This document shows, piece after piece, positions 28,301-51,853 of a stretch of 64,000 bases of DNA (positions within the stretch are counted from its first letter, which is position 1; the number at the start of each line of letters is the position of its first letter). The DNA is taken from NCBI RefSeq assembly GCF_054482595.1, contig NZ_CM137008.1. One strand, 5' to 3'. The position numbers and the translations under genes are program-made. The notes below the pieces were generated by a model that saw only the letters and a list, made by a program, of their open reading frames with translations, had not been told where the DNA came from and made no database searches.

Positions 28301-28747
28301 TTCAGCATTGTATGCTGCCAGCTCGTTATTTAGCCCATCGAGTAATTGCTGTTTACGATTGAAGTACCAGTCCAGGTAGATCTCGGTAAACAAAAGCGAC
28401 AAGTACTGAAAATATTTCATGTTCAGCACAGTGTCTTCTTTGCGATTACGGTGCTCAGTTATCTGCTGCCAGTGCTGCACGATATTGAGATCGTAACGAC
28501 GCAGTTCATCGAGATCGATAAGATCGACCTCGAATAAATAGTTACTCAGCTCATGGAAGAACAAACTTTGGCCATCCTCATGGATGCCTTCAAAGCGATC
28601 TTCACCTAACCGATTCTTCAGACCTTGCAATGTGCCATCTTTAAAAAAATGGAACATAAAGCGGTTCAAAACCAGTTGCTTATGAAAGCTCAGTTTGCTG
28701 TTTGTCTCTTTTTTAACAGCTTTACCGGTGGTCGGTTTTTTAGCCAT
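25367..28747 (-). CDS. SF2 helicase with C-terminal PD-(D/E)xK-like motif (Type III Res-like), third gene of the operon
   Basis: 1126 aa; Walker A NATGSGKT (~aa 177-183), DExH-like VLIDEGHKG (~aa 278-286), SAT-type motif III (YSATFG), motif VI-like QLFGRGVRL, and near the C-terminus YPDFLLWLVDDKSGKQWLSLIDPKG, which fits a PD-(D/E)xK nuclease signature; start overlaps the upstream gene's stop. Confidence 0.65.
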   Translation of the reverse strand: MAKKPTTGKAVKKETNSKLSFHKQLVLNRFMFHFFKDGTLQGLKNRLGEDRFEGIHEDGQSLFFHELSNYLFEVDLIDLDELRRYDLNIVQHWQQITEHRNRKEDTVLNMKYFQYLSLLFTEIYLDWYFNRKQQLLDGLNNELAAYNAENDKTAKDRANQFKSYILDDLNKLAYWNATGSGKTLLLHVNILQYLHYFQNGNTHHYPDKIILLTPDERLSKQHLDELENSGFTQYQLFDKSKSAPFKGTIEVIDINKLADEMGDKTVAVEAFEGNNLVLIDEGHKGTGSAAGAWMRRRDKLTRDGFAFEYSATFGQAVAGGNNVEAVETEIQKKKAKLLFETTALGKLNEEELAQIALTSEEKRDARIQATREVYGKSILFDYSYKFFYEDGYGKESLILNLNPEEDKKDERRYEYFTACLLSFYQQQYLFNKNKEKLSEFNIEKPLWVFVGNTVSGEDSDIHAVLRFLAWFLNHETQAKAWINDLIKNKARILDTKERNIFENRFTALMNAPEDIYADILSRLFNTTHSGQRLRVLNLIGSKGELALQVGEAEPFGLINIGDAPSLYKMCEEDTTFDYQRDDFAKSLFHTLNDKDSRLHILIGSRKFTEGWSSWRVSTMGLLNMGRGEGSQIIQLFGRGVRLKGRNYSLKRSTPGERPKGLHLEKLETLNVFGVRADYMATFKQYLEDEGITPSDEILELNFETRPNMPATRLKTLKLKDGYKDNQRLGFKRVYFPELYEVPADFQGKIKQPHIKLDLYPKLESIDTSRKGDNTPVNVRNEAKLDYKIISAFDFDRLYLAIQNYKLQRGWSNLRVDKQRLIDFCTGKTKIGNSWYTLLIPASELEIKQYADIAKQEDIMLRLLTDYTDRFYNTLKNAYEGQFYEVTQVKEDDPGMIKMYHFEIEETDDGLAYASRLEQLQQLVIDGEIGKAKSWSASGMVAITFDKHLYYPLLSIEKNANIPLKMRPAALGAPSEITFVQDLQSFVDSTKGQKIIGDKSLYLLRNADSKNKGLGFATAGNFYPDFLLWLVDDKSGKQWLSLIDPKGIRNLNLDDPKFGLYKEIKNLEHKLSDDNLSLSAFIVSETCYVDLVNVPDSKENLEARNVLFIEDTGPVYLEKLFSKMVSE

Positions 28748-28749
28748 TC

Positions 28750-31700: not shown

Positions 31701-31884
31701 CTGCATCCGCCAGCGCAGACTGGATTTTGGCCTTCAGCTTATTATCCAGATAGTCGTTAATTTCATCAGCACGTGCATTTAAAATACGATAAATACCGAA
31801 ATCCAGTTCTGGTCGATCAATCTGAAAAATTTCTTTTAGCTTCTTAACTAATTCGTTGTACTTACTCATTATTTTCTCTTTCAA
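28750..31884 (-). CDS. Beta-class DNA amino-methyltransferase (N6-adenine or N4-cytosine; Type III Mod-like) with ~480-aa N-terminal extension
   Basis: 1044 aa; catalytic motif IV IIYLDPPYNT (~aa 498-507) lies before the AdoMet motif I DLFGGSGTTAHAV (~aa 784-796), the circular permutation of beta-class MTases; the N-terminal ~480 aa is unassigned. Confidence 0.7.
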   Translation of the reverse strand: MKEKIMSKYNELVKKLKEIFQIDRPELDFGIYRILNARADEINDYLDNKLKAKIQSALADAGNANKSELEHQLQLTIKAATDAGVDPADSPKVQELKKQLAAMASGANEHENAVFSHLLTFFSRYYDNGDFISKRRYKGNTYAIPYSGEEVMLHWANKDQYYIKSGENFANYSFKLDDGRKVSFKLLAADTAKDNRKDNELDRCFVLIEPHVRTKIDEEGDEYEQEYKPVEVVKNSSVVDGKLVETEELVIHFEYKAMKKGTKQDALVQSAISTILADKTVQQHWVDLAKRAPTEKNPSRTELERHLTTYTQRNTADYFIHKDLGGFLTNELDFYIKNEVMNLDNVQNAEVFANIEKQLRMIQCLRTVALELITFLAQIENFQKKLWTKKKFVVSTEYCITLDRIPDALYQTILVNDKQFKHWSTLGLFQQHNSRDMKFLKSSPYLMVDTTFFDSKFKCELIRSIDNIDNEINGLLVNSENYQALKILETKFDKSTSIIYLDPPYNTDATPILYKNGYKDSSWATLMADRIILSKKLLNNNGVFCYAIDDTEMSLLKELEKSINPEREVLQCIVEHYPGSGTGRTNVSRTHEYCLFSIPEGMDILKGDSVEDGIRTRGFRRAGTGDNNFRIGNPGRPESFFAVLVDPDTFEVKGVEPPPVPLEKGNYPVGETKEGLKRVYPIGENGEERVWSLSYEGAKKAIEVGELVSSNKFVINRLYHDSARRLLLPSIWQGSQYNATIGGTNLLTSMFGSAGLFSYPKSLGTMERVIDSVWHSANNETIVDLFGGSGTTAHAVINRNREKSEDHKYILVEMGEHSDSVIKARIVKAVYSDKWNKGYPQDKNGISHILKTIKLESYEDCLNNIVLKKSPIDLFETLPSDVRNDYLLNYLIKNESKDSFLGIDNFKKPFNYEMDIATDSAGATERKNIDLVETFNYLIGLHVKSIESNIERGYVRVEGTLPTGERTLILWRDCDKIGYEELNKYANRFDLYAKENTYDVIYINGDHNLPTAFTVDEEDGEIVRSLKIRQIEPEFLNLMFAEEV

Positions 31885-31889
31885 ATCAA

Positions 31890-35170: not shown

Positions 35171-35193
35171 TGGTGCGAAGGCCGGACTCGAAC
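35171..35193 (-). other. tRNA 3'-end fragment (leuX-like T-arm plus acceptor), probable att-site remnant
   Basis: Reverse complement ggttcgagtccggccttcgcacca has the T-loop GGTTCGAGTCC and a CCA end, closely resembling the 3' end of E. coli tRNA-Leu (leuX) as recalled; the sequence to the right does not continue as a tRNA. Confidence 0.55.
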
Positions 35194-35881
35194 ATGTGAC
35201 TTAACCTCATGATTTAAAATTGTTAATAATAAACAATATCATCTTATACCAACACAGATACCAACACGAAAAATCACTGGTTTTCGGCATCGAACCAGGA
35301 CAATCAGCTCCTGATTGAGATACCGAGCTCTGTTACTCGTCATCTTCCTCGACAGGCTTCATTGCATCAAGTAGTACTCGCACCATCGCGATAGAACCAA
35401 TCCGGATAAAAGCATCTTCTCCATCTATATCTGTTAACTGATATCGCTCACTTGATGCCGGATAAGTGTGTCGATTTGCAGCTGTGTACTCTTTTGTACA
35501 GCCAGAATGTGGCTGACTGAGGTGGAGCAGATAATGTCCCCGTTGACCACTTCCGGACGGGAGGCTGTGATTTCAGACATAATTGATATTCCTTTTTGCA
35601 GATAAATGAAAACGCCAGCCCTGTTCAGGCTGGCGTCAGTGGAATGAAGTATGGTGAGTAATATTTATCGGTTCTGGTGCAGAAGCTGCAGTTGGCGCAG
35701 GGTACGGATACCCTCCCTGGCCTGTTCGATACAGGGCAACAGTGCTGCCGAATCCGTTTTATCCTCATCGTTGTCAAAGATAATTCCCGATTCGCAGTCG
35801 ATATTGTCCTGCAGCCACACAATCAGAATATCCAGCGCCGTTTCTGTGGTTAATGATTTCATCCTGTGTCTTTTGTCCTGG

Positions 35882-36370
35882 TTACCAGTTGAAAGTGGGT
35901 AAATCCTGCAGACATTCAGCACCGGCATCCAGATGAATGAGACTGACGCCATAACGCCGGATGAGTGTGACAACCAGACGGCGGAACGTTCTGGACAGCC
36001 CCAGGCGTTTAAGCCGCAGAACCGGGTATGACCACGCATCGGTACGTAACAGATATCCGCTACCTGTGAAATGAATCCATTCTGATTCGCCGGTGTCATT
36101 CGTCTGATTTGACAGCGAGTACAACCAGGCATTGTCCGTTTCCGTGATATGTGCGGTACTGCAGCGTATGCCGGTAAGGGCCGCAGATGGTGGCGTGCGC
36201 TCTGCTGATGTCCGGTCAGATTCATCAACAACACGAAGGGAGTAACCGTTATCGCAGACCACGTTAATCAGTTCAGCGAGAGTAACACCATCGACGTCAA
36301 CGACAATGCGCCCCATGTTCAGTGCCTGCACGTTAATGCTGTCGGCTTCCAGCGTCAGGGCCAGTTTCAT
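35882..36370 (-). CDS. YeeW-like protein (follows CbtA toxin gene)
   Basis: Position immediately after the cbtA-like gene, overlapping its 3' end, as yeeW does in CP4-44; no domain assignment. Confidence 0.45.
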
Positions 36371-36741
36371 TGTTTCGCCCACGGATGTTTACCCAGGGTA
36401 ATGTTATTTACCGTTCTGTAATTGTCGCGGGCCATCAGGCCGGTTGCCCGGCGGGCCCGGAGGATATCAATACTGTTTATTAACTGAGAACGAGTACAGA
36501 CGCTGAATCCCGGCTGGTCGGTACGCACCAGTGCGTATTTTTCAACGAGAAAGTTCACCGCATCACACAGTGAAATGCCTGCCTCAATATGCTGCTCAAT
36601 CACACGTTCATCAGCGAACGGTGTGTCATTCAGTGTGAGGCCGTAATGCTGGTCCAGCAGTCGGGTGAGCAGTGTCTGCCAGATGGTGACGGGAGACTGG
36701 CAATGCGATGCCTCCCGTACGTGTGTATCGGGTAATGTGTT
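36367..36741 (-). CDS. CbtA/YeeV-family toxin (cytoskeleton-binding toxin)
   Basis: [121 protein letters not shown] matches the CbtA/YkfI/YpjF family; start placed at MNTLP. Confidence 0.8.
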
Positions 36742-36833
36742 CATACTGAAGATTTTCCTGATATGCAGAGATGAAAAATGGAAAAGTGGCGTGGTGAAAG
36801 CACCAGGCCGGAGAAGAAGGTTATTCTGGAGAG

Positions 36834-37202
36834 TTACTTTTTCGTTTCGGGCGTCGGATAAACAGCCATATAAACGTAGCCACAACTGCCGAGGGTGTCG
36901 GCTTCGCAGGTCAGCCTTTTTGCATACAGCGTGACGGTATGCTGATGGCGGGGATTCAGTTCACCGCTGGTGAGCATGAGTTCCAGTTGTTTCATCAGCA
37001 GCGGAAAGGCCTGGTCCAGATGGTACGCATCCGCGTCGCTGAACCGGCCTCTGATACCGGCGCGGTCTGCAAGGTAATGCAACCGGTTACCCTCCTGCAC
37101 CAGACGTGCCCCAAAACAGGGCGTCACGGTGCAGGGCAGTCCCCACCAGGTGCGGTCGTTATTGTCGTCGGGAAGCGTTGTCCCGGGGAGTGTGTCTGAC
37201 AC
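36834..37202 (-). CDS. CbeA/YeeU-family antitoxin
   Basis: 122-aa ORF directly upstream of the toxin gene; [23 protein letters not shown]... matches the YeeU/YfjZ family. Confidence 0.8.
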
Positions 37203-37281
37203 GATAAAATCCTCACAGAAAATTGGTTAAGAATGGTCCGGTGGTGGCGATAATTCTGCTCTTCTGAATGCCCTTCCAGAC

Positions 37282-37503
37282 TCAGTTCAGGGTGACGCTC
37301 ATCAGCCGGACATACGGACCAAAACTGTCCTTACGGCGTTCTGCAAACACAGCCAGCACACCGGGAATATCCTGTACTTCACGGCCGGTATATGTATCCG
37401 TGCTACCGTGCCAGCGGTATTTACCGGTACAGAACGGAAAAAGACGGGATGCAGGATGCTGACGGTGAATACGCATGGCTTCACCACGGGTGATGATTTT
37501 CAT
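37282..37503 (-). CDS. YeeT-like protein (DUF987)
   Basis: 73-aa ORF in the position of yeeT between the radC-like and antitoxin genes. Confidence 0.55.
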   Translation of the reverse strand: MKIITRGEAMRIHRQHPASRLFPFCTGKYRWHGSTDTYTGREVQDIPGVLAVFAERRKDSFGPYVRLMSVTLN

Positions 37504-37589
37504 GAGAATAGTCCTCCTGAATGTGAAAGTAAGAAACAGCTGAGAAAGAGAAACTGAAGTGATATGAAGGTGATTGTGACGGTGACGGG

Positions 37590-38066
37590 TTAAAGCAGAC
37601 CGTGTTCGGCAAAGGAGAATACCTGGCTGCCACCGACTATCAGATGGTCCGGCACCCGGATATCCACCAGGGCCAGCGCCTGTACCAGACGTTCAGTGAT
37701 AAGCCGGTCTGCCTTACTGGGGGTGACTTCACCGGACGGGTGATTGTGCGCCAGCACCACGGCAGCGGCATTGTGGTACAGGGCACGTTTAATCACCTCC
37801 CGGGGATGGACTTCTGTGCGGTTGATGGTGCCTGTGAAGAGGGTTTCACCCGCAATCAGCTGATTCTGGTTGTTCAGATACAGCACCCGGAACTCTTCCC
37901 GCTCCAGTCCTGCCATGTTCAGAATCAGCCATTCCCGTGCCGCATGCGTGGAGGTGAAGGCCACGCCGGGTTCATGAAGATGGCGGTCCAGGGTTTTCAG
38001 GGCCCGCTGAATGAGGCTGCGCTCGCCGGGCGTCATCTCTCCGGGCAGAAAGGAAAGCTGTTGCAT
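37590..38066 (-). CDS. RadC-like JAB/MPN-domain protein (YeeS/YfjY family)
   Basis: 158 aa with the JAMM-type motif VVLAHNHPSGEVTPSKAD. Confidence 0.8.
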   Translation of the reverse strand: MQQLSFLPGEMTPGERSLIQRALKTLDRHLHEPGVAFTSTHAAREWLILNMAGLEREEFRVLYLNNQNQLIAGETLFTGTINRTEVHPREVIKRALYHNAAAVVLAHNHPSGEVTPSKADRLITERLVQALALVDIRVPDHLIVGGSQVFSFAEHGLL

Positions 38067-38080
38067 TGTTCCGGCCCCTT

Positions 38081-38569
38081 TCAGTCAATGATGCGCATAA
38101 TGGCGTTGCATTCCGGATGTTGCAGGGCGTAATCCCGCAACCGATAATAATGGACCGTCATGGCATAACACTCCGTACGACAGGCATGATGACTGTACGT
38201 CATCAGACAGGCAGCAATGCCGGCGGCTTCCGGGCTCATTTCAGCGCGGTTACCGTTCATGGCATTGAACAGTACCCAGGTTTCTCCATCATCTTCATCC
38301 GGTTCGGGCGCCATAAATGCGCCGCCGTTATTCAGGGTGTACAGATTCCAGATACCACCGCAGTAGTCTTCACACAGACGGTCCATCCAGCCGAAGACAC
38401 GGGGCTCCAGGGTCACCCACTGTGGAATGAGGCCAAAGTGCTGCGGCCAGAAGCTGATGCGCTGTTCATCAGGGACGGGAGTGGCAACCAGTTGAGACTG
38501 GTTATTCCCTGATGCAGTAGTTACGGAAACAGAAGGTGTGGTGGAATTATGCGAAGAGGTTGTCATGAG
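38081..38569 (-). CDS. Antirestriction protein, ArdB/KlcA family (YfjX-like)
   Basis: ~160-aa protein in the conserved position upstream of radC in CP4-type elements; family assignment from memory of YfjX/KlcA. Confidence 0.55.
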   Translation of the reverse strand, partial: LMTTSSHNSTTPSVSVTTASGNNQSQLVATPVPDEQRISFWPQHFGLIPQWVTLEPRVFGWMDRLCEDYCGGIWNLYTLNNGGAFMAPEPDEDDGETWVLFNAMNGNRAEMSPEAAGIAACLMTYSHHACRTECYAMTVHYYRLRDYALQHPECNAIMRIID

Positions 38570-38657
38570 ATTATTCCTTATAAAAAGCAAATGAATGGAA
38601 GAATGCCTGGGGACTGGTACAGACGTGAGTCAGGGCTGCACTTTCAGGGAAACAGCA

Positions 38658-39476
38658 TCAGCGCATGCTCTCCAGCAGCGTTTCTGCCATCACCCACAAT
38701 GCGCGGTTGAGCTTAATATCGGTGTCGATGCTGTGAATGGCACGGGTGTGGATACGTTTTCCTCTGGCACTGCGACCGGAAATTCCGCCTTTCAGCATAT
38801 TCTCCTGGATGGTCTGATAAGCACTCCACAGGTCCTTACCGTAATCCTCCCGGCGTCGTGGTGTCAGAATGTCGGCAGTGGTGACTGGCTGATGTTTGTC
38901 ACCATAACGGTAAGTCAGTGCCGCCTGTGCCAGCGCCTGGCGTGCCGGTGGCGGCAGGACCAGCGACTGCATGGCATCACGCTTCTCCTCTATCCGGTCA
39001 AAAACCCCCACCACCTCGTAAGCCCCTTCAATAACTTTCTCCACCACATTTCCCCGGTGCGGAACACGCACTTCCCCCAGAGACTGACCACAGACGCATC
39101 CGTTCTGGCAGACGAACCTGAAGTAACCCGGCAGCATCTGGTAGCTGGAGGTACCGTCATGAGAGTTGAGCAGAATAATTTCAGGGACATGTTCTCCGTT
39201 TATCTCTCCGGCCCGCCGCAGACGCAGCATATGTTTGGTGTATCCCCGGCGGCCCGGGTCGCGCACACGGGTCTGGCAGGCGAAGAACGGCTGAAAGCCT
39301 TCCCGCTGCAGACTTTCCAGCACGGTGATGGTGGGGATATACGTATAGCGTTCACTGCGGGAGGTATGCCGGTCTTCCCCAAAAATACCGGGTACATAGT
39401 GCATCAGTTCTTCGTGTGTCAGCGGACGGTCACGGCGTATCTGATTCGCATAACCAAAACGACTGGCTAATTGCAT
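38658..39476 (-). CDS. DUF932-family protein (YfjQ/YafZ-like)
   Basis: 272-aa ORF; position and size match the DUF932 gene of CP4-type islands. Confidence 0.5.
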   Translation of the reverse strand: MQLASRFGYANQIRRDRPLTHEELMHYVPGIFGEDRHTSRSERYTYIPTITVLESLQREGFQPFFACQTRVRDPGRRGYTKHMLRLRRAGEINGEHVPEIILLNSHDGTSSYQMLPGYFRFVCQNGCVCGQSLGEVRVPHRGNVVEKVIEGAYEVVGVFDRIEEKRDAMQSLVLPPPARQALAQAALTYRYGDKHQPVTTADILTPRRREDYGKDLWSAYQTIQENMLKGGISGRSARGKRIHTRAIHSIDTDIKLNRALWVMAETLLESMR

Positions 39477-39804
39477 ACTTTGCTCCTTATGAATGAATTA
39501 GCGGTATAAACGAAAAGGCCGCGTCTCCCGGAGAAGACGCGGCCTGATGGATGAAATGAAGACGTTTATTGCCTGAGAATTCCCTCACTGGCGAGATACG
39601 AATTTAGCTGTTTTCCGGCATCAGGTTCAAAATTCCAGCACCGCCAGCGTAGCTGCCCTTCGGCATTGCGGATAACCAGCCGGAAATGCGTTCCCTGGTC
39701 ATCTTCAATAAGCACATTGCGGTAAGCTGTTGTGACGGCAACCGCCTGTTCGCGTGAGAAAGGGCCTTCGGGCAATAAAACAGGGTGGCAGTCCTACATA
39801 CCGG

Positions 39805-40482
39805 CTATTTTCCGATAAATTCAACGCTGGCGCCGGTGGCATTACCGTCAGCACCAACCGTGACGGTCACTTTGTCGTACGCACGGTCTTCAGGATTGAA
39901 TACTTCAAACTCAACCTTATTGCCTTTTACTTCGTAAGAGCCAAAATCAGCGGTTTCTGTTGTTTCCTCGTCATATTCCCGGGCGTATGCCTGCCGGGCA
40001 GCCTGCAGGACGGAATCTTTATCAATAGTGGTCGTCTGTTTCGGGGAAAAACCGGCAAGTGATGTGACAAATTTCGGACAGACCTTCAGCATATCACCGC
40101 GGGTGAATTCCATTCGTACACCAAATGCCTGTAAAACGGACACATCACGCTCTGCTATGGAGTGAACGGCTTTTTTGACCATTTCCGGCGCCTGTCCGAT
40201 TTCCACCTCAACAGCCCTGAATCCCGTCTGCTGATTACACATTTGTGATGTGGGGATCAGGTTACCGTTAATACTGATACGGCTGCCCAGGAGCGTCTGT
40301 ACACCATTCGGGCATCCCTGCATCAGGCCGGTAATACCAATCGTGCCATTTTTCAGCATTACCAGCGCCTGACCATCTTCCGTCATGGTCTGACACCAGC
40401 CGTTTTTGACAGCCCAGTTGCCGGCGGAGGCGGAGAATGATGCCACAGTGAACAGCAGGGGAAAAAGAGCTCTGGTATTCAT
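39805..40482 (-). CDS. Exported hypothetical protein (signal peptide)
   Basis: Start placed at MNTRALFPLLFTVASFSASA (signal peptide); the remainder has no recognisable domain. Confidence 0.4.
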   Translation of the reverse strand: MNTRALFPLLFTVASFSASAGNWAVKNGWCQTMTEDGQALVMLKNGTIGITGLMQGCPNGVQTLLGSRISINGNLIPTSQMCNQQTGFRAVEVEIGQAPEMVKKAVHSIAERDVSVLQAFGVRMEFTRGDMLKVCPKFVTSLAGFSPKQTTTIDKDSVLQAARQAYAREYDEETTETADFGSYEVKGNKVEFEVFNPEDRAYDKVTVTVGADGNATGASVEFIGK

Positions 40483-40629
40483 GACTGACCTCTGAAATGA
40501 ACGTACGGTGTTATTGATAATGATGGAAGGTATGCAGTGACTGTTCAGGGAATGACGTAGCCGTATATTTAGTTTTCTGTTCAACATATTGTCTCCATAC
40601 CTGTCGGGACGGCTTTGGCAGGCCGGCAA

Positions 40630-41310
40630 TCACAGGTTAAAGGTGTTGATAAGTTTATGGATGAAAGAGAAATGTGGCAGGGCGGAGATAAAACGCTCTT
40701 CAGCGACCAGACTGTGGATGTGGCCTCTCCGTTCAAACCGTTCTGATGTCAGGCTGACTGATTTGATATCTGCCAGAGGAAAGACCTGCAGTTTTCCCTT
40801 CTGTAACGCGATCAGATACCAGCTACCGCTGTAATAAATGAGCCGGCAGGGCTCCAGTGACGGATACCATCGCTCAGTCATCAGAGAGATGTGGATACAC
40901 TGTCTTATTGCCAGGATGAGTTGCGAGAAACACTCGGGGAACGTTGCAGTGATATCCGGCGCCGGTAGCCAGATAAGGCAGGGAGAGGGCTCCTGGTTGT
41001 CGGTAAGACAGGTTATCAGTCGTCCGTTCCGGAGCGGAAGTATCCGTGCGATCCCGGTATTCTGTATAAAAGAAAGCATTTCAGGGATCGCACCTGGGCT
41101 GCTCTGTCGTCTGAGGCTGTACCTGCCATTTCTGTACTCTAAATCCAGGTGAACCAGACGCTGATGAAAATCGCGCTGTAAAGTACGTTCTGTAACGCCA
41201 AATTCATCTGACAGTGTTTTTAGTGACAGAGATTCTCCGGCCATCAGTCGGCTGATAATGAGTGATAAGCGAACCGCCAGGCGATCATGCCGGGAACGAT
41301 TATCAGACAT
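40630..41310 (-). CDS. WYL-domain transcriptional regulator (YfjR-like, HTH)
   Basis: N-terminal HTH (RHDRLAVRLSLIISRLMAGESLSLKTLSDEFGVTERTLQRDF) followed by a WYL-like region (SGSWYLIA). Confidence 0.65.
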   Translation of the reverse strand: MSDNRSRHDRLAVRLSLIISRLMAGESLSLKTLSDEFGVTERTLQRDFHQRLVHLDLEYRNGRYSLRRQSSPGAIPEMLSFIQNTGIARILPLRNGRLITCLTDNQEPSPCLIWLPAPDITATFPECFSQLILAIRQCIHISLMTERWYPSLEPCRLIYYSGSWYLIALQKGKLQVFPLADIKSVSLTSERFERRGHIHSLVAEERFISALPHFSFIHKLINTFNL

Positions 41311-41512
41311 AGATGTGCACTCCGTAAGAAAACATCTTTTATTTCATGATGTTATTATGCATCATGATGTTGAAAGGATGTGTCGCATCCGGATAATCAG
41401 GAATAAAATGCAGCAGAAAAAATATTCTTTTAATTATCTGATTTTTAAGCATGATTTCATAAAAAGAAGAATGCTCGTTAATCCAGCGACACATCCTGTC
41501 GGCGTGAGTGTG

Positions 41513-42397
41513 TCAGAACAGACGCTCCCACAGTGTGATCAGCAGGTGGATAATGCGGTCCCGGGCTTTACGCAGAAGCTGTAACATCCAGGCCGGAAAA
41601 CTGAAACGGGCAACGGCGACGTCAAAACTTTTCCCGATGGTTTCACCAAAAGTCTGTTGTGCGTGTTTCTGGGCCTGTTCAGAGCGGTTTTCTCCCCGGA
41701 TATGTGAATACACCGCGCTGGTTGCCTGTGGTGGCAGTGCGTGGATCATCAGCGACACAAACGCCGGAAGGTTCCAGCCGACAGGTGCAGCAACGGAGAG
41801 TACCGGAAATGATGAAGGGAACAGGGTTGCCACCCGGGCTGTCACCGTCGCCAGTGAGAGCGCCTGCTGACGGGACGGGCATTTTTCTGTGGCATTCCAT
41901 TCTTCAGCAGGAAACACGCGATCGGCATGGCTGAGAACAAACAGAAAACGCGAGGGATCTGCGCCTTCATTCAGTAAAAACTGATGCATGGTAATGTCGG
42001 CGGCATACGCGCGTTCATCTGCCCGCAGGATCCAGATAATCAAATCCACTTCCGGCAGTAACTGACGGTAAAGCGCCCGGTATTCCTGATCATGTTGCGG
42101 CGTCTCTCCAATGCCGGGCAGATCGACCAGCGTCATTCTGCGTTCACCGATCTGCAGGGTAAGACGATGAGCCTGGCGGGTGCAGCCGTTCAGGGGATGT
42201 GTGGCACAGATATGGGACTGAAAAATAGCATTACACAGGCTACTTTTGCCGGTGCCGGATTTACCCATAATGCCAATCACGGGTTCGTAATGAATAACGC
42301 TGTGGAGATGTTCAAGAATTTTCTGACGAATTTCTTCAGGAAGAAACGTCAGATATGATTTCACTTGTGCGGAGAGGGAAGAATGGCTGAATGACAT
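41513..42397 (-). CDS. GTPase of the YeeP/YfjP/YkfA family
   Basis: P-loop GIMGKSGTGKSSLCNAIF, G3 motif LVDLPGIGET. Confidence 0.75.
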   Translation of the reverse strand: MSFSHSSLSAQVKSYLTFLPEEIRQKILEHLHSVIHYEPVIGIMGKSGTGKSSLCNAIFQSHICATHPLNGCTRQAHRLTLQIGERRMTLVDLPGIGETPQHDQEYRALYRQLLPEVDLIIWILRADERAYAADITMHQFLLNEGADPSRFLFVLSHADRVFPAEEWNATEKCPSRQQALSLATVTARVATLFPSSFPVLSVAAPVGWNLPAFVSLMIHALPPQATSAVYSHIRGENRSEQAQKHAQQTFGETIGKSFDVAVARFSFPAWMLQLLRKARDRIIHLLITLWERLF

Positions 42398-42581
42398 ACC
42401 GGTATCCTGTTGATTTCACTGAACCGGATCACACTAATCCGGTTTATCATTCAGGTAATATGGACGTGAAAAATGATGGAATGTCTGAATTACGGATATT
42501 ATTGTTAAAGTGTAATGGAGTATGAAGTGAGTTTTTCAGAACGGGAACTAATGACATACTGCGGTTTCAGGAGATGAGAGG

Positions 42582-43712
42582 ATGACCGGACGTAAAAACA
42601 AATGCGTCAGAAAAAATTGTAACAATCAGGTTTTCTCAGTAAAAATGGCAGTGGAGAAAAGACTGTGCAGAAAACATTATGAGAGGTTTTGTGAGCTCAA
42701 AAAAAGAAGAGAGCAAAATCCTGTTCACAGATTAAATGAAGCATTGCCAAGAAAGATAAAAGGACCCAAAAGTAAGAAAAAATTAGTAAAAGAAAGAGAA
42801 ATCATTAACAGCAGGAAGAAACATAAACAGGAGCAGGGACCATCGCTGGTTGAACTTAATAAAAAAGTTCGTGAGATACTGAAAACTCCGGCATGGAGAA
42901 CGCTGGAAACGAGAATTCGAAGAAACGGTATCACATTTAAATCAAAAGCAGAGTTAGATGTACTTTCTGAACTTTATGCAATTTATTCATGGGTTTCATA
43001 TTGCAAACGGAGCGATAATTATTCTGTGTGGTTTTTGAATTGTCCGGATGTAAATATAAATCTTCATGTGTGCGAATGCAGGTCTTCTGAAAGCGATTGT
43101 TATCTACCATCCCGTTTTATTATTCTTCCAGCTCCATTAAGGCAAAAAGTAAAAAGAAAATACCCTGCTAATTCGTCTGGAGTGTCAGGATATAGTGATT
43201 CAAAAAGTCTTTATAAGACTGTTTTGTCTGTTTGTGGTGGGAAAAGAGAAACCGAATTGTTCTTTTATTCACTGCCAGTAAAGACTAATCATCATCCTTA
43301 CTGGATTAAAAGTGGTGTGGTTAAAAGATTTCCGCCTATTTTTGGCTTGTTGTTTTATGAACAGGAAAGGTTAACAGGAGGTGTTTTTCGTTATGTGTTG
43401 ATAAAGTTTTATAATGCTTTTAAGGAGAATTTGTTTTTTGTTGAGATTATCTCGTGCTGTTTTCTTGTTGAGTTTTTTCATGATATTGATTCATTTTTTA
43501 TAAATCAACGATTAAGTAAGTTGGAAATTTTTATAGATAAGTGGAGGGAGGGTAAAGAAATCTGGATAAAAGCATATCTACAACTGATACATAATGCATT
43601 GGGAATAACTGAAACAGAAAAACTCGTCAATCTATATAATTCATTTTTTACTGATAAAGTGGTTCTCTGGGATGAATCAGTAAAAAAAGTTAAGTGGATT
43701 TATGAGAAATAG
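42582..43712 (+). CDS. Hypothetical protein, Lys/Arg-rich N-terminus with CxxC pairs, very AT-rich
   Basis: 376-aa ORF; N-terminal KCVRKNCNNQ ... CRKHYERFC and a strongly basic stretch; no homolog recalled. Confidence 0.35.
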   Translation: MTGRKNKCVRKNCNNQVFSVKMAVEKRLCRKHYERFCELKKRREQNPVHRLNEALPRKIKGPKSKKKLVKEREIINSRKKHKQEQGPSLVELNKKVREILKTPAWRTLETRIRRNGITFKSKAELDVLSELYAIYSWVSYCKRSDNYSVWFLNCPDVNINLHVCECRSSESDCYLPSRFIILPAPLRQKVKRKYPANSSGVSGYSDSKSLYKTVLSVCGGKRETELFFYSLPVKTNHHPYWIKSGVVKRFPPIFGLLFYEQERLTGGVFRYVLIKFYNAFKENLFFVEIISCCFLVEFFHDIDSFFINQRLSKLEIFIDKWREGKEIWIKAYLQLIHNALGITETEKLVNLYNSFFTDKVVLWDESVKKVKWIYEK

Positions 43713-44252
43713 CACCATTTAACTGAAAGCTACCATAACGTCTTTTTGATCACACGCATGATAATGCGTCTCATTTAAATTTCGTTTTTTGGGTCATGGA
43801 AATTTTCCGAACATCAGTGATAATGAGGGTTTTGTTGTTTTTGTTTCTGCAATGTTTGAGGGCTGTTCCTGGAGACGATTCGTTGCTTGTGAGCAAGTGG
43901 TGGTCCGCTTTACTGGACGAGTTTTGCATTTGTTGAGTGGTGAAATGGAAGTAAAAAGAGCCCCTTTCTGGCAATGACTGAAAAAGTCAGTAGCGTGTAA
44001 CAGTAAAAACTAACATAAAGTGATTATCGTATGATTATGACAATAACTTATAACTTTTATGAAAAGAACAACAGAAACTACGAAGCCATAACAGATTCCT
44101 GAGACCATGTTTTCTGAGGTAGAGAAAATAATTCAAGAGTAAACCAGTTTGTTTTTTGGTCAGTAAAGAACCATGCCTGATGTGAAAACGGGTAATCAAC
44201 ATTCAGTCTGCATGGATGTTTGGAAGAGTTGAGAATGTCGGTATGATACTAT

Positions 44253-44324
44253 ATACACGTATTTTTACTAAGCATTTCAGTAAGTGTTATACACGTATTT
44301 TTACTAAGCATTTCAGTAAGTGTT
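44253..44324. repeat. 36-bp tandem direct repeat (2 exact copies, then a degenerate third)
   Basis: atacacgtatttttactaagcatttcagtaagtgtt occurs at 44253-44288 and 44289-44324, followed by atacacgtattttcataaacacttctacaagtgtt...; lies in a ~1.25-kb ORF-free stretch. Confidence 0.8.
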
Positions 44325-45228
44325 ATACACGTATTTTCATAAACACTTCTACAAGTGTTTTCGTTAAGCATTGCTATACACATCCAGTTTAGTAAATCTT
44401 TACGTTAACTAAATCAGTTTAATGCTGCTGTAAAACCTTTCTGCTTCAGCAATCAATCTGCTATTCGATTTTACTGATGTTACGTTTAACCTTTCCTGAT
44501 ATTTCGAGTTTCGACGTTAGCATGAGAAAAGTATCTTTACGCTAAATCAACCCGAACTTTCCTGAAGTAATCTGACGTTCTTTTCGATGTGCTTACGACG
44601 ATTCTGTTAAACGACTTTCTGGATGTTTTGATAACAATCAGATTTAGGCATTAACGATTCCTGACGTTTTTCTTTTCCGTGTAAGGTCATTGTTTTCGTC
44701 ATGATGTGACTCTTCTTGCATTGCGAAAGTGTGATGAACGGTTTTGGTGTTTTGATTCAGATGAAGTTTACGTTATCGATGGTTAATCGTTTTTATGGTG
44801 CGTAGTGAAACGTAACGCTTTCAGGAAGGGAAAATCGATTCTGATGGGGATGATCGTGTAACGGCGTTATCTGTAAACAGGTTTTAAACATGTCATTCGC
44901 ATCCGTGATTAAGTTGTGTGATTAAGCTGTAGGTTTTGGCGTTGTTGTTGATTTGCATTACCAGGAAGCGTTCTGGTTGCGTTTCTGGTGTTTTGTTTGA
45001 ATGTTCTGTGGATCCTTTTCCCTTCTGACTTTTCTCGTTGTCCATGTCGTTTTTAAATCCATTCGCTGTTCTTGAGTGTTTTTACCCTGTGTGTAGGATT
45101 ATCTTTTTGTTCCGTTTCAATCACTCTTAATCAGAAAGTTGTAGCATTGCTCAATGCCGGATGCCGTAAAGTTTTACCGCGGTGATTAATGATGTGAAGT
45201 CAATCCAAATCAACGGAGATCTCTCATC

Positions 45229-45960
45229 ATGAATCAACCAATACACAATGCTTACTGGTTATCCCGTTTTGAAAGTATTCTCAACGGTGCCCTGGCGCAA
45301 CACCGTGCCGTCTCGTTAATCCGGGTGGATTTACGTTTCCCTGAGTATATGCCTGCCACCATCATGGATACCGATTTAGATTCAGCGGTGATTTCTCGTT
45401 TTTTTGCATCCCTGAAAGCAAAAATTCAGGCTTACCAGCGGAAAAAACGACGTGCCAACAAGCGTGTGCGTGCAACCACTCTGCGTTATTTCTGGTGTCG
45501 GGAGTTTGGCAAGGAAAAAGGCAGGAAACATTATCACGTGATATTACTGCTCAACAAAGATACCTGGTGCTCGCCAGGGGATTTCACCGTTCCTTCTTCG
45601 CTGGCGACGCTGATCCAACTGGCATGGTGCAGTGCTCTGCATCTTGAGCCCTGGCAGGGTAATGGACTGGTTCACTTTTCCAGGCGGACGCCTTTCCGTA
45701 AACCGACATCATCTGATGCTCGCCCTTCTTCCGATGATACGCCTGTGCCTGGTGGATGTTCTGATACCCGGAAGGATTCTGACAAAAAATCTGGTGGATC
45801 CGCTGTTCTCTGGGTCAAGCGTGGTGATGTGGAAGCGATGCAGAAAGCCATGGAGAGAGCCCGTTATCTCGTGAAGTATGAGACGAAGCAGCATGACGGT
45901 TCTGGTCAACGTAATTATGGTTGCAGTCGTGGGCTGGGGCGTCTACTGGATGGCAGGTGA
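45229..45960 (+). CDS. YagK/YfjJ-family protein (inovirus Gp2-type)
   Basis: 243 aa; region RYFWCREFGKEKGRKHYHVILLLNKD resembles the YagK/YfjJ family of CP4-type elements. Confidence 0.45.
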   Translation: MNQPIHNAYWLSRFESILNGALAQHRAVSLIRVDLRFPEYMPATIMDTDLDSAVISRFFASLKAKIQAYQRKKRRANKRVRATTLRYFWCREFGKEKGRKHYHVILLLNKDTWCSPGDFTVPSSLATLIQLAWCSALHLEPWQGNGLVHFSRRTPFRKPTSSDARPSSDDTPVPGGCSDTRKDSDKKSGGSAVLWVKRGDVEAMQKAMERARYLVKYETKQHDGSGQRNYGCSRGLGRLLDGR

Positions 45961-46287
45961 ACCCTGTAAAACAGCATCCGATGCCTGAGTTTATGCCAAC
46001 GCCCTTAGCTCGCTTTCTGAAAAGTCGTCCTGAAGTAATGCAATGGATTGCCATCTACTTCCGTTCGTGACACATAAGTCGAAAAACCTTTGGTTGTTCT
46101 GGTTATTTGCATTTACTGCCATTCATAGAAATGAACAGATCGATTGGTAGGACTCAAATGTTATAGCGTCTCTCTTCTCATAGTCTGCTTTGTACCAGAC
46201 GCGGAATCCCCTAATGCTGGTGTACAGGTTCTGACTCATTTCCTCCCCCACTTTCATCCCGTTATACTGTGAAAAAAGGAGGTAGGC

Positions 46288-47166
46288 GTGAAACTGAAAA
46301 TGCAGGATTTGAGGCTGTTTAATATTGTGTTCGAGAGCGATCCTGGCTGGATACTGGATTTCTCTAACCGCACCTTGTCTGCTTTTTTCGATGAAGAATT
46401 GAACATTGATATTGATGATGAACGTTATCAGAAAGAGGGGACGTCAAAAGCCAAACGAGTTAGATGCTTGCTGAAACAGGTTGATCGTGAGACCGCTCTG
46501 CGGGTTCTTGGTGCGCTCTGGCAGTATAAAACGGAATCCATGCCTGAACAGGCTGAACAAAGCCGTAATGACTATCTTGCACTGATTTCCCGCTTAGAAA
46601 ACGCTGACACCGATGAAGCCAAAGGCGTTAAGCCTGTCCAGGCATGGCATGGTGTTGACTGGCATTCACTTATCGCTGAAATGAACGAGATGAAATCTCT
46701 GCCGCCACATCCACGTGGTTTTCGGTTTGAAGCCTGGCTTGCTGAACTGTTCAGTATCTTTAAGCTTGCTCCCCGTTCGTCTTTCCGAAATACAGGCGAA
46801 CAGATTGACGGAAGTTTCCGACTGAATGATGAATTTTACCTGATGGAGGCAAAGTGGCATCAGAAAAGAACGTCGGCTGCCGACCTCCATGTATTTGAAG
46901 GAAAGCTCAGTACCAAGGCAACCTGGACACGCGGTGTTTTTATCAGTTGGATGGGCTTTACGCCTGAAGGCCTGACGGCTTTTGGTAAAGGGAAGCGGGT
47001 TATCTGTGTCAGTGGTTATGATCTTTACCACTCACTGAATCATAGGATCCCTTTACCCGACCTTCTGGATGCTAAAACCCGGCACGCGGCTGAAACGGGA
47101 GAGCCCTATGCTGAGTTCGACCGACTATATGCACTGAAAGACAAACAGTTCGGCACGCTGAAATAA
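46288..47166 (+). CDS. Mrr-like restriction-endonuclease-domain protein (PD-(D/E)xK), N-terminal domain unknown
   Basis: 292 aa; C-terminal half contains [27 protein letters not shown], fitting the (D/E)-x-GIDG ... x-A-K-(R/W) pattern of Mrr-type catalytic domains. Confidence 0.45.
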
Positions 47167-47180
47167 CGGGTTGGGAAGCG

Positions 47181-47794
47181 ATGACCTGCTCCCCGTTGTT
47201 TCACACAGAATCGTGTACAGGGTCGAAGTTCTGGCTCAATGTGCTGACTGAACTGAAAAACCGCGGTCTGAACGATATCCTCATCACCTGTGTAGATAGC
47301 CTGAAAGGCTTTCCAGATGCCATCAACACAGTATATCCGGAGGCCAGCATCCAGTTATGCATCGTGCATATGGTGCGCAACAGCCTGCGCTTCGTGTCAT
47401 GGAAGGACTACAAAGCCGTCACTCGCGACCTGAAAGAGATTTAATCAGGCACCCACGGAAGAGACAGGCTAGCAAGCACTAGATAAGTCGGAGCTGGCAG
47501 GCTAACTGACCGAATCTTACCACGTTCTTCGCTTATCTGACGGACATTCGCAAAGTGCGCTATACGACGAATGCCATCGAGTCACTAAACAGTGTGATCC
47601 GCCATGCGATCAAAAAGCGTAAAGTGTTCCCGACAGACGACTCGGTGAAAAAAGTGGTGTGGCTGGCAATCCAGTCTGCGTCCCAGAAATGGACGGTGTC
47701 GTTGAAGGACAGGTGTATGGCAATGAGCCGCTTTATTATCGAGTTCGGTGACTGCCTGTCACTTCTGAAAAAAGGCATTTACACAGAATCCTAA
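47181..47794 (+). pseudogene. IS256-family (mutator-type) transposase, fragmented
   Basis: Two short ORFs (…[47 protein letters not shown]… and …TNAIESLNSVIRHAIKKRKVFPTDDSVKKVVWLAIQSASQKW…) resemble the C-terminal half of IS256-family transposases, broken by stops. Confidence 0.5.
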
Positions 47795-47913
47795 ACAGGT
47801 TCCGACATTCCCCACTCATACTAAACACCTTGTCACTTGACGCAGGGCTGAACATTTTACAACAACGGTATACCAATATGATATTGGTTTACTAAATTTT
47901 TTGGGAATCCCTC

Positions 47914-48796
47914 AGGGAATTTCTCCCTATACTTCCAGACATCTGTTATCATTTAACCCATTACTGATCCGCTGCCGCATATATACCTGCGGCGAGCGAT
48001 AACTTAGAACTATGCTGCATTGTAATGTTCGATTGCTACTGCATGGTTATGCAATGCCGTCATTAACATCTGGCTTGGGCATGAACACGATGTAGTCACG
48101 CTTTATCGTTTTCACGAAGCTCTCTGCTATTCTGTTACTCTCCGGACTCCGCACCGCCGTGTTCTTCGATTCAAGTCCCAACATCCGAGCGAACTGGCGT
48201 GTTTCATTAGCCCGGTAGCATGAACCATTATCTGTCAGCCACTCCACTGGAGACGCCGGAAGCTCGTTGCCGAAGCGGCGTTCCACCGCTCCTGGCATGA
48301 CGTCCTGTACTGTTTCACTGTTGAAGCCGCCGGTAGTGACCGCCCAGTGCATCACCCCGGCAATAAGGGAGCGTGCGCTATCCACTTTTTGCACGTCCAT
48401 ATTCAACGGCTTCTTTAATGAGTTCATTTTCCATCGTTTTGTTCCGGGCAGGCGCTGGCGTTCTTTAATCTGCCTTATGGCAGCAGCAAGTTCAGAGGCA
48501 GGAACGATCTGTTCCCCAGCAGTCACCGCAGTAAGACTTCCCTCCTGGTATTGCTTGCGCCAGAGAAGTAACTGGCTGCTACACCATGTTGCCGGGCAAC
48601 GAGGGAGACCGTCATTCCTGGTTCAAAGCTCTTCTGAACATTAGCGATCTTTTCCTGTGCAGTATGCCGTCTGAGTTTCTCCGGTCCTGAGGCATCAATC
48701 ATCTGTTTTCCAATGACCAGTCTAAAAACTAATATTAAGATTATCACTTATTTAAGTGATATTGGTTGACTGGAGATTCAGGGGGCTAGCCTATCC
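47914..48796 (-). mobile_element. IS2 remnant with internal deletion (pseudo)
   Basis: Ends resemble the IS2 termini (…ccagacatctgttatcatttaaccc… and …ctggagattcagggggctagccta); encodes truncated InsD-like (159 aa) and InsC-like (74 aa) fragments; ~0.88 kb versus 1.33 kb for intact IS2; left boundary approximate. Confidence 0.65.
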
Positions 48797-48922
48797 GGGA
48801 AAGTTCACTCACTTTGAATGAAGTAAATATTAAGTATCACATTTTGTGATGTAGCCATTATTTTTATAAAAAATCACCTGATAGGATTTATCATAAGTTA
48901 ATGATAAGCAGAGTATTGATAG

Positions 48923-49363
48923 ATGAGCAAGAAGAAGTTTTCTGTTGAGAATGAAGATCTCTCTACTGTTCGTACATCACTTCTTAATTCCAACCTTGTC
49001 CGGAAGTTGATCATGGAAATGTCTGATGAAGACTTCAATCAAGTTAAGGATAACCTTGAAAAGGCCATTGAGCAGCGTAATGAGTTGAAGGATTCTTTGG
49101 CAATTATCAAAAAGTACATGGATGACGCAGGTGTAACGGCGGAAGATGTGTATCGTGAATTTGGCAAAAAATTACAGACGGGCAGAAAAAACGATTCAGG
49201 AGAGTCTAATAAGTACAGGTATGAGTATAACGGTCAAATAATGTACTGGAGTGGACAAGGTCGTCGGCCTTCTGTTATTGCAGAAGCAATAAAAGCCGGA
49301 GGTTCTCTTGATGATTTTCTTATATCTCAGGGCACATCATCATCTTGTTCTGATTATGAGTGA
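48923..49363 (+). CDS. H-NS-family nucleoid-associated protein paralog
   Basis: 146 aa; N-terminal coiled-coil-like region and a C-terminal DNA-binding motif YWSGQGRRPSVIAEAIKAGGSLDDFLI, close to the H-NS TWTGQGRTPAVIKKAM...SLDDFLI signature. Confidence 0.65.
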   Translation: MSKKKFSVENEDLSTVRTSLLNSNLVRKLIMEMSDEDFNQVKDNLEKAIEQRNELKDSLAIIKKYMDDAGVTAEDVYREFGKKLQTGRKNDSGESNKYRYEYNGQIMYWSGQGRRPSVIAEAIKAGGSLDDFLISQGTSSSCSDYE

Positions 49364-49631
49364 TACATCTAATCGGTTGAATGTTGCTGTAATGCTCGCT
49401 TTTGATGCTTATATGGCAGCGTTACCGTTTATTGTTTTAGTTACAAATTGGTCGTCATGGACATAACCTGAAATTATAACTATCATCGGGTCTTTCAAGT
49501 TGCTTATGCATATAACGCCAGGGAGGAAAACGAGAGTTAAAAAATTGAACTGTTCTCATAGAGACTGTAATTTAAATTGTGTAATTGCCGGTTTTTGATA
49601 TGTTCACTCCAACAACGTAGACAAGTAGATT

Positions 49632-50139
49632 GTGGACGAAAAGACGCTTAAAGTCCTTGCGGCTGAACTGGCTAAAGGCCTCAAAACCGGGGCCGATCTC
49701 AATCAGTTTTCCCGTATGCTGACGAAATTAACTGTCGAAACGGCGCTTAATGCGGAACTCGGTAACGGCTGCAGATGTTCCTGCTCTGGTGTATGCTCAG
49801 CATCCTGTTTTGGTGCGGCGAAGACATGGAAGCGGCGGGAGAACCCCAGCGTATTAACCGCAAAGTTAACTTTGCACCGTTGCCCGGCAACCTCCACCTC
49901 AACTTCGCCCTAGTCGTGCTGGAGCTGGTATCCAGGCTGAGTTTCGAAGCGAACTGTTCTTTTTGACGGACGCATTTTACGTTTGGGCTGGATGTAGTAA
50001 CGCAGCATGGAACGTCCGCCCGTATAACCCATTGCCTGACCGTTCGTTCAGAGCAACCAATCTGAGTCGCAATATCGACAATGTACGCGCCCTGCTGGCG
50101 CATTTGCTTTATCATGTAAAAGTCCTCTCTGCTCAGCAT
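49632..50139. pseudogene. Transposase fragments (HTH N-terminus on - strand; IS256-like piece on + strand)
   Basis: MLSREDFYMIKQMRQQGAYIVDIATQIGCSERTVRQW on the - strand looks like a transposase HTH; MDEKTLKVLAAELAKGLKTGADLNQFSRMLTKLTVETALNAEL on the + strand resembles an IS256-family internal segment; both are broken. Confidence 0.3.
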
Positions 50140-51171
50140 GTTGATGTCATTTCTGGTGTGAGAACCTTAAGGAAACAACATGTTGGGTGGAGCGGAAAAT
50201 CCAAATGGTGACCGTCTTATTATCGCTGGCGCTGACACCTGAGCGATCACCTTTAATATGGTAGCAATTACACTGAATTACTTACAGATTCGTTATAACG
50301 AACCTCTGTACATAATTATGAAACAGATTTGTATTTACATAAAACATGGATATTTTTAATTTAGGTTTATTACTATTATTATACTCACTCCCTTTTTGAT
50401 ATAATCTCTATTGTTATTTACTTCCTGTCTTTACTCACTCTCTGTTCCTGTTTTCAGTGAAATAATAATTTATTTTAATTTTATCCATCATGAGCTGTAT
50501 TTGCTTAACAATGATTGTTTGCCTGATATGTTTTAACTATTCTGGTGAACATCAATTCTCTGTCATCACTGATTAACTGAATGCTTACGCTTTGATAAGG
50601 TATCCATGATTCCGTCATGTTTAACAGCGCAGAATAAACAATGAAATTAACAGAGTGAATTCCTGATTATGTTTGTTTCGGGTTGTATTGTTTAAGATGC
50701 AGAGTAAAAATCATGCCAGTGGTATTTTTTACTCTGGTAATGTGTGCGGTTAACGTTCATGTCCTTAAGAACAGATTGGATGAGGGCGTATAAGTTTATT
50801 GCGTTGGCCTTGTTCACGTTTTTTTAGAACCACTGAGAGCAAGTTTGTAGTTTATGATTGATTGGTCGAAATATATTTCTTAACCTTCTGGTTGTGGGTT
50901 TTTATCGCGTGTTTTGCAGTATTTCGTGATGTTTATTGATTCTGTATTTTATTCGCTCCTCGTTTATCTCATCTCTTTAGCTAATACCATCAGATAATCC
51001 ATTTATTTCTGCACAACGCTACGTGTCGTTAATAACCGACGTATCCATTCTGTTACAGCATGCCTGATAAATACCGTCTGTAAGTTATTACCGTTTTAGA
51101 TCTGATTATGAGCGAAAGCATTAATTCGTTTACAGCACTTAAAACGTCATTAACTTTCAGGAGTCATCAGC

Positions 51172-51738
51172 ATGCCTAAATCTTACACACCAAACTGGTT
51201 TTTTACCGCTTTACTTGACAATCACATCAATCAAATGATGGCACGCTATTCCTGCCTGCGGGCCTTACGCATGGATTTCTTCTACAGGAAAGATACGCCT
51301 GATTTCTTACAACCTGATCATCGCTGGCTTGAATTGCAGTTGCGTATGCTGCTGGAGCAGGTGGAACAATTTGAAAATATCGTTGGCTTCTTCTGGGTGA
51401 TTGAATGGACGGCTGATCATGGTTTTCATGCGCATGCGGTTTTCTGGATCGATCGTCAGAGGGTTAAAAAAATATATCCCTTTGCGGAGCGGATTACGGA
51501 ATGCTGGCGGTCTATTACGCATAACAGTGGTTCGGCACACCGCTGTACATATCAGCCGCATTATACATACAACATCAACATTCCTGTGCGCCACAACGAT
51601 CCTGAAAGCATCGATAATATTCGCGGTGCCCTGCATTATCTGGCGAAAGAAGAACAAAAAGACGGGCTGTGTGCCTACGGCTGCAATGAAGTTCCTGAAC
51701 GTCCTGCTGCAGGGCGTCCTCGTAAGCCTCACTTCTGA
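51172..51738 (+). CDS. YagK/YfjJ-family protein, second paralog
   Basis: 188 aa; FFWVIEWTADHGFHAHAVFWIDRQ parallels the HYHVILLL region of the 45229 gene. Confidence 0.4.
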   Translation: MPKSYTPNWFFTALLDNHINQMMARYSCLRALRMDFFYRKDTPDFLQPDHRWLELQLRMLLEQVEQFENIVGFFWVIEWTADHGFHAHAVFWIDRQRVKKIYPFAERITECWRSITHNSGSAHRCTYQPHYTYNINIPVRHNDPESIDNIRGALHYLAKEEQKDGLCAYGCNEVPERPAAGRPRKPHF

Positions 51739-51853
51739 AAGTTTGAATCATGAGTTTCCTGGCCCGGAAACACTTAGTCGGTAAAAACTTACCTCGATGA
51801 TTAATGATGTGAACTGAAGTCAACGGAGATCATTCACCCTGAACCTGCATCCG

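Follow-up and report, generated by a model that had tools for sequence, protein, structure and literature searches.

A degenerate HNH-like domain in an unannotated Enterobacterales protein family of CP4-57-type islands

Introduction

Genomic islands of the CP4-57 type in Escherichia coli, Klebsiella, and Salmonella bear virulence, toxin-antitoxin, and defense cargo, and how they replicate and move after excision triggered by AlpA is poorly understood. A 64,000-nucleotide stretch of DNA from contig NZ_CM137008.1 (RefSeq assembly GCF_054482595.1), referred to below as the window, carries a segment of such an island. Within that segment lies an open reading frame (ORF), designated X (42582..43712, plus strand), whose product is labeled a hypothetical protein wherever it is annotated (WP_047928958.1; the CFT073 allele is WP_001339473.1). 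Is X a piece of separately acquired cargo, as an earlier note made from the sequence alone had proposed, or part of the island's own apparatus? We find that X belongs to a rare family whose central domain is homologous to the HNH (beta-beta-alpha-metal) nuclease domain, and that the gene is tied to the AlpA/regulatory end of CP4-57-type islands over deep divergence. Judged by alignment, the catalytic positions of the domain have been replaced in X and in its whole subfamily, in a protein still under purifying selection.

Gene X and its composition

The ORF starts with ATG directly 3' of a GGAG-type ribosome-binding site, recognized by sequence inspection, and encodes a basic protein of 376 residues (isoelectric point 9.7). 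It diverges from a GTPase gene, as the earlier note had it, across a 184-bp intergenic region (42398..42581) that holds the ribosome-binding site. The plus strand of this region contains no convincing sigma-70 consensus, and a scan of it for promoters and terminators returned no more than shuffled sequence would. The gene was rightly called very AT-rich: its GC content is 0.337 (0.286 at third codon positions), against 0.53 for the GTPase gene, 0.505 for the downstream Gp2-like gene, and 0.464 for the window. The same note had described a basic N-terminus with paired cysteines or CxxC and a C-terminal half rich in Phe, Tyr, and Ile. Residues 1-120 do include 38 Lys and Arg (isoelectric point 10.96) as well as Cys at 8, 13, 29, and 37, and residues 121-376 include 54 Phe, Tyr, or Ile, but there is no literal CxxC; the spacing is C8-x4-C13-x15-C29-x2-H32.

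Identical or near-identical copies of X occur in 462 of 5426 complete E. coli genomes, at several chromosomal sites and with up to two copies per genome. The gene is full-length in 458 of the 462 carriers; an insertion sequence, IS1, interrupts at least one copy (H1/H26). Pairwise ratios of nonsynonymous to synonymous substitution rates (dN/dS) among three E. coli alleles, at 96% and 86% DNA identity, are 0.25-0.32. Because of these ratios, the full length of nearly all carriers, and the existence of full-length homologs in other genera at 16-38% identity, X must be viewed as a real gene under purifying selection, beyond a chance ORF. The 5' flank of X travels with the gene in 457 E. coli records. 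A flank that includes the end of the GTPase gene is found in 1832 E. coli genomes, only 462 of which carry X.

Every homolog in the subfamily to which X belongs is AT-rich (GC content 0.28-0.36) beside neighbors of ordinary composition (0.45-0.51). The low GC content is therefore an old and maintained family trait and not a sign of recent separate import. It would be compatible with control by H-NS, since AT-rich DNA is the kind of target that H-NS binds.

A central domain homologous to HNH nucleases

X has no match in Pfam, NCBIfam, or PADLOC, and its best match in PHROGs reaches only E 0.1. That no family was recognized at the outset thus stands as far as curated families go; remote homology and modeling nevertheless show a core derived from HNH (His-Me finger) nucleases. 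In the family alignment, 15 of 32 members share the block [CS]H-x-[YF]P-N-x2-GG-x-N-x3-N-x-I-I-x-P-x2-I-N, which has the H-N-N spacing of HNH/His-Me finger nucleases. These members are called intact below, and the remainder, which include X, degenerate. No curated HNH model reaches its threshold for any family member, and X itself gives no match. The intact relatives produce sub-threshold matches located on the motif, to HNH_4 (E 0.005-0.07), HNH_5 (0.016-0.07), IscB (0.016), and Cas9d (0.03), which are individually weak and mutually consistent.

Structure prediction with AlphaFold2 gave a model of X with a predicted local distance difference test score (pLDDT) of 83.9 and a predicted template modeling score of 0.71; for an intact relative encoded at IMG/VR locus L024, the central domain was modeled at a pLDDT of 87.1. 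The beta-beta-alpha unit falls exactly on the motif block in both, so that X is predicted to have the beta-beta-alpha-metal fold of the HNH/His-Me finger superfamily, and in structural comparison the central domain of the family matches HNH nucleases best. In X this domain, a helical part followed by the beta-beta-alpha element, spans residues 89-193 (42846..43160), the element itself occupying residues 161-193 (43062-43160).

Where relatives read 'LE[LV][CS]H-xYPNSxGGxNxxxN-xIIxP-xxIN', the counterpart in X is 'LHVCE-CRSSESDCYLPSR-FIILP-APLRQ'. The general-base His that closes strand 1 in all 15 intact members is E165 in X. The loop Asn is likewise missing, 'SESDCYLPSR' standing in place of 'NSxGGxNxxxN', and R187 replaces the Asn of the helix. 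In other degenerate members the His position is occupied by Lys, Thr, Ser, Phe, or Trp, and no substitute active site is conserved. Two alignments, anchored on the invariant P183 and the near-invariant L161, agree on this degeneracy. We infer that X has lost the ability to cleave DNA.

In the E. coli alleles, H162, C164, C166, and C173 form a cluster within the degenerate HNH loop (residues 161-174, nucleotides 43062-43103). The cluster is absent from other degenerate members and may be a lineage-specific structural metal site.

Flanking modules of the protein

Residues 8-37 (42603..42692) form a zinc-finger-like module, C8-x4-C13-x15-C29-x2-H32-Y33 followed by a helix. The four ligand positions, C8, C13, C29, and H32, are conserved throughout the family alignment, and the AlphaFold2 model places them in a beta-hairpin plus helix at a pLDDT of 96-97, which is the predicted four-ligand Cys/His knuckle and helix of zinc-finger and zinc-ribbon modules. 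No curated zinc-finger model in Pfam matches the module; its pattern resembles the N-terminal Zn finger of TtuA, at a non-significant E 4.6. Because the region is very basic and carries this conserved Cys/His arrangement, the N-terminus probably binds nucleic acid, a possibility first raised, together with that of a zinc ribbon, by the earlier note and now supported. A Lys/Arg-rich linker predicted to be disordered (residues 58-82, 42753..42827, pLDDT <50) follows; in the intact subfamily, a second Cys-rich motif occupies the same alignment position. The C-terminal domain (residues 210-376, 43209..43709), all-helical with a terminal beta-hairpin according to alignment and model, contains R263 and E288, both invariant in the family, as well as the conserved 'LYNSFF' (351-356), and has no structural match above noise.

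Extent of the family

A word-indexed search found 18 relatives of X, comprising E. coli alleles, a metagenomic form at 38% identity, and a form from Klebsiella and Atlantibacter at 31%. An exhaustive HMMER profile search of 1.84 billion representatives yielded only 38 family members at E <= 1e-3. Those that can be named come from E. coli, Klebsiella, Salmonella enterica, Lelliottia, Scandinavium, Atlantibacter, Citrobacter, and an unclassified Enterobacterales isolate; all belong to the Enterobacterales, and all are annotated as hypothetical. A scan of GTDB representatives found just three loci, and scans of IMG/VR found none of the degenerate subfamily. Profile searches of PDB sequences with alignments A1, A2, A3, and A4 returned nothing significant for the family, PADLOC-DB assigned X and five relatives to zero defense families at E up to 1, and literature searches found no characterization of the family.

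Four features run through the family alignment: the N-terminal CCCH zinc-finger pattern, a helix with a conserved 'W-x-N-x-E', the central block, and the C-terminal 'LYNSFF'. P183, R263, and E288 are invariant. In a neighbor-joining tree, intact and degenerate members are separated by a single clean bipartition, recovered in 100 of 100 bootstraps, and on the sequences at hand this implies one loss of the HNH site followed by long retention under selection. The same split coincides with the two gene architectures described next. Since it is one bipartition, we rejected the idea that the pairing of a dead HNH site with a Gp2-like neighbor arose in several independent events.

Two gene architectures across genera

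Degenerate members lie divergently from a GTPase or WYL gene and are followed, with or without an intervening AlpA gene, by a gene for a Gp2-like protein. This layout is found in the window, CFT073, locus L006, the Klebsiella group, loci L010-12, and locus L026, and all of the degenerate-subfamily loci examined have a Gp2-like gene downstream of X. In Klebsiella, Citrobacter, and Atlantibacter, the GTPase gene diverges from X, which is followed by AlpA, REP_ORF2-G2P, DUF7828, and UCP030791 genes. A metagenomic degenerate member has the GTPase gene divergent and X, AlpA, and Gp2-like genes in order. In Scandinavium, whose homolog is 16% identical to X (alignment A2), a WYL gene takes the divergent position, and the Gp2-like gene precedes AlpA.

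Intact members (loci L009, L021-L025, and L027) are arranged instead on one strand, in the order AlpA, X, GTPase (not always present), and WYL, and further along DUF932 and then RadC, CbeA, and CbtA. Integrase genes lie upstream, and no Gp2-like gene is nearby. Both architectures include the WYL regulator, which accompanies the family throughout.

In all, neighbors of the CP4-57 type surround homologs at 16-38% identity at no fewer than 13 distinct loci, with X in a conserved position. From this shared layout among such divergent homologs follows the tie of X to the AlpA/regulatory end of the island. The co-occurrence with the GTPase gene that the earlier note had proposed to look for is found in Klebsiella, Citrobacter, Atlantibacter, and loci L026, L009, L022, and L025; the GTPase gene is near X homologs in most contexts and absent from some. 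Nor is X universal in CP4-57-type islands, being absent from CP4-57 of E. coli K-12. The equivalent interval there consists of alpA, yfjI, and yfjJ, followed by the AbpAB and RnlAB defense cargo. These defense and toxin-antitoxin systems stand, instead of X, between the Gp2-like gene yfjJ and the GTPase gene yfjP (locus L014, 2761351-2767355), and because K-12 carries them there, the junction beside the GTPase gene is a point of module exchange.

Two smaller observations concern individual loci. At L010 and L011, what looks like an intergenic gap of 0.8 kb between the Scandinavium X homolog and the Gp2-like gene contains a 43-residue tblastn match to AlpA (8609-8737, 46% identity), an AlpA-like ORF, small or decayed, that gene calling missed. 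Locus L015 (LR733917.1, 5130 bp) places an intact-HNH homolog between an AlpA-like gene and a ParM/StbA partition ATPase, after which a truncated small gene reaches the contig end. Such a neighbor is a hint that elements bearing the family are in some cases maintained outside the chromosome. That L015 is an entire small plasmid, for which X would be the Rep protein, we rejected, as the record lacks terminal overlap and ends within a gene.

The island segment in the window

Positions 35171-54070 of the window are a CP4-57-type island segment. The leftward backbone run is headed by the GTPase gene of the YfjP/YeeP (MMR_HSR1) type (41513..42397, minus strand; Pfam E 2.6e-15, with support from synteny), next to which lies a YfjR-like regulator with helix-turn-helix (HTH) and WYL domains (40630..41310, minus strand; Pfam and tblastn synteny). 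Beyond these come genes for a 225-residue protein, DUF905, DUF932, an antirestriction protein, RadC/JAB, DUF987, and CbeA/CbtA.

Rightward, X is followed by an AT-rich, ORF-poor spacer of 1.5 kb (43713..45228, GC content 0.373). The spacer contains 2.4 copies of a perfect 36-bp tandem repeat, TATACACGTATTTTTACTAAGCATTTCAGTAAGTGT (44252-44337), of which CFT073 and locus L006 have about one copy. Compared with CFT073, the first 500 bp or so after X are 96-98% identical, and positions 44500-44800 only about 71-74%. Rfam has no family within 41000-46500. The spacer could be a cis-acting region, whether an origin, an iteron array, or a regulatory region, for the HUH protein encoded next, the Gp2-like protein of the YagK_YfjJ_C/REP_ORF2-G2P type (45229..45960, plus strand; Pfam E 5.5e-37).

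After this gene come an Mrr_cat restriction-endonuclease gene (46288-47166), remnants of IS256- and IS3-type transposases (47181-48747), and an H-NS-family paralog (48923-49363), which together split a module that in Klebsiella is a compact run of X, AlpA, and Gp2 genes. To their right are a second Gp2-type gene, of REP_ORF2 type (51172-51735, 57% identical to the Klebsiella REP_ORF2-G2P gene), a gene for a 191-residue protein (51986-52555), the AlpA-like HTH gene of the same module as X (52627..52857, plus strand; identified by tblastn and by the RefSeq annotation of the near-identical region L001), and a UCP030791 gene (53143-53688). The window thus holds two different Gp2-like genes, one of YagK_YfjJ_C and one of REP_ORF2 type. 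At the CbtA end, by Pfam, three large co-directional genes (25367-34781, minus strand) encode a 963-residue SNF2/helicase protein, a 1044-residue N6/N4 DNA methylase, and a 1126-residue ResIII-helicase protein, and look like a restriction- or DISARM-like defense cluster. An HNH_2 endonuclease gene lies at 23776-24705.

A proposed role and its alternatives

AlpA is a known activator of CP4-57 excision. Next after AlpA, or paired with AlpA and an HUH Gp2-like protein, X is therefore the gene best placed to act on island DNA after activation. Our tentative preference, at somewhat less than an even chance, is that X is a conserved gene of the integrase-proximal AlpA/Gp2 module for regulation and DNA processing, and that its product, dead as a catalyst, binds DNA as an accessory to, or regulator of, the processing of island DNA; this assignment of role goes largely beyond what is directly observed. 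X would be a sequence- or structure-specific factor that binds island DNA through its zinc finger, basic linker, and dead HNH scaffold, with the 184-bp divergent promoter region and the repeat-bearing 1.5-kb spacer downstream as candidate targets, and would regulate or assist excision, replication, or mobilization. Strand cleavage would be supplied by the adjacent Gp2-like HUH protein, to which the C-terminal domain of the degenerate form might bind as to a partner. The intact form, which has no Gp2-like neighbor and keeps its HNH site, probably cuts by itself, and would be a site-specific HNH nickase or endonuclease for replication or mobilization of the island. A bolder version, which we think rather unlikely, makes the family the missing DNA-processing enzyme of these islands, an HNH nickase under AlpA control that would initiate replication or transfer once the island has been excised. 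The degenerate subfamily would then record a nuclease swap, in which cleavage passed to the Gp2-like HUH enzyme and the HNH protein, though dead, stayed on as the DNA-targeting subunit of that enzyme. To our knowledge, an initiator or relaxase of HNH type would be unprecedented.

Several features of the locus could be those of a protein that serves chiefly as a transcription factor or silencing adaptor, its zinc finger and basic region binding the GTPase/X promoter or AT-rich DNA so as to control the backbone operon, the Gp2 and AlpA genes, or both, with no part in cleavage, replication, or transfer. The divergent GTPase and X genes share the 184-bp control region, the N-terminus is very basic with a conserved zinc finger, regulators (the WYL/HTH protein and AlpA) are in constant attendance, and both X and the spacer are AT-rich in an island that encodes an H-NS paralog. 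No HTH or known regulator domain is found in X by Pfam or NCBIfam, however; a protein of 376 residues that has kept a nuclease scaffold and has a large, conserved C-terminal domain exceeds what a simple regulator needs; and the intact-subfamily gene is co-directional with the operon rather than divergent. We consider this explanation unlikely, though not negligible. That X is instead still an active nuclease, using substitutes such as H162 and E165 with the C164, C166, and C173 of the E. coli alleles, is quite improbable. The beta-beta-alpha scaffold is retained and confidently predicted, H162 and the acidic E165 lie on strand 1, and His-Me finger enzymes tolerate varied metal ligands. Against this, the residue at the His position varies by degenerate lineage (Lys, Thr, Ser, Phe, Trp, Glu), no alternative catalytic constellation is conserved, and only the E. 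coli alleles have the Cys cluster.

The separate acquisition favored by the earlier note, which would make X a phage-defense, anti-defense, or toxin gene in a variable slot beside the GTPase gene, is not supported, and we regard it as improbable. It draws on the defense systems AbpAB and RnlAB that fill the yfjJ-yfjP interval of K-12 CP4-57, on the absence of X from all but 462 of the 1832 genomes that have the GTPase flank, on a GC content well below that of the neighbors, and on the defense genes that surround several homologs. But neither X nor five relatives match PADLOC, X has no partner gene of its own, AT-richness is common to all subfamily members, and, unlike shuffled cargo, the slot relative to AlpA, WYL, and Gp2 is kept across genera; homologs at 16-31% identity fill it, and the layout holds down to 16%. 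It is very improbable that X is what is left of a selfish HNH homing endonuclease, now decaying and without function. Homing endonucleases in decay typically lose their catalytic residues, and IS1 has occasionally inserted into X, but the dN/dS of 0.25-0.32 argues strongly for purifying selection and against decay, full length is kept across genera at 16-38% identity with non-catalytic motifs conserved, and all but four of the 462 copies are full-length.

As a rare and unannotated gene at the control end of the island, with one form whose HNH site seems active and another, dead one that is paired with an HUH protein, the family is a concrete and testable candidate for the DNA-processing step of these islands. 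It merits a domain annotation in place of 'hypothetical protein', and X would offer a natural example of a nuclease turned non-catalytic partner.

Comparison with known systems

The central domain of the family shares its beta-beta-alpha topology with HNH nucleases such as Cas9/IscB, PacI, DraIII, and EcoKMcrA, and one subfamily also has their H...N...N signature; these nucleases provide the only sequence-model matches, all sub-threshold. X differs from them in lacking the catalytic His and both Asn, and its zinc finger and helical C-terminal domain of about 170 residues have no counterpart there. Zinc-ribbon or zinc-finger HNH nicking endonucleases of phages and prophages, like X, combine a Cys-rich zinc module with an HNH core in a mobile-element protein. 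They differ in domain order and size, the zinc finger of X being N-terminal and set apart by helices, and X is catalytically degenerate; we know of no detectable sequence similarity between them and X. In K-12 CP4-57, the positional analog of X is YfjI (DUF3987, P4 alpha-like), the product of a large gene beside alpA and the Gp2-like yfjJ. Homology between the two was rejected, with a best BLASTP E of 0.81 and a different domain family. The Gp2-like HUH proteins (YagK/YfjJ; Pfam REP_ORF2-G2P) have a fold and a chemistry, HUH tyrosine transesterification, unrelated to X, which is not a member of their family; they belong to the same module, and are the proposed partners that would supply the nicking.
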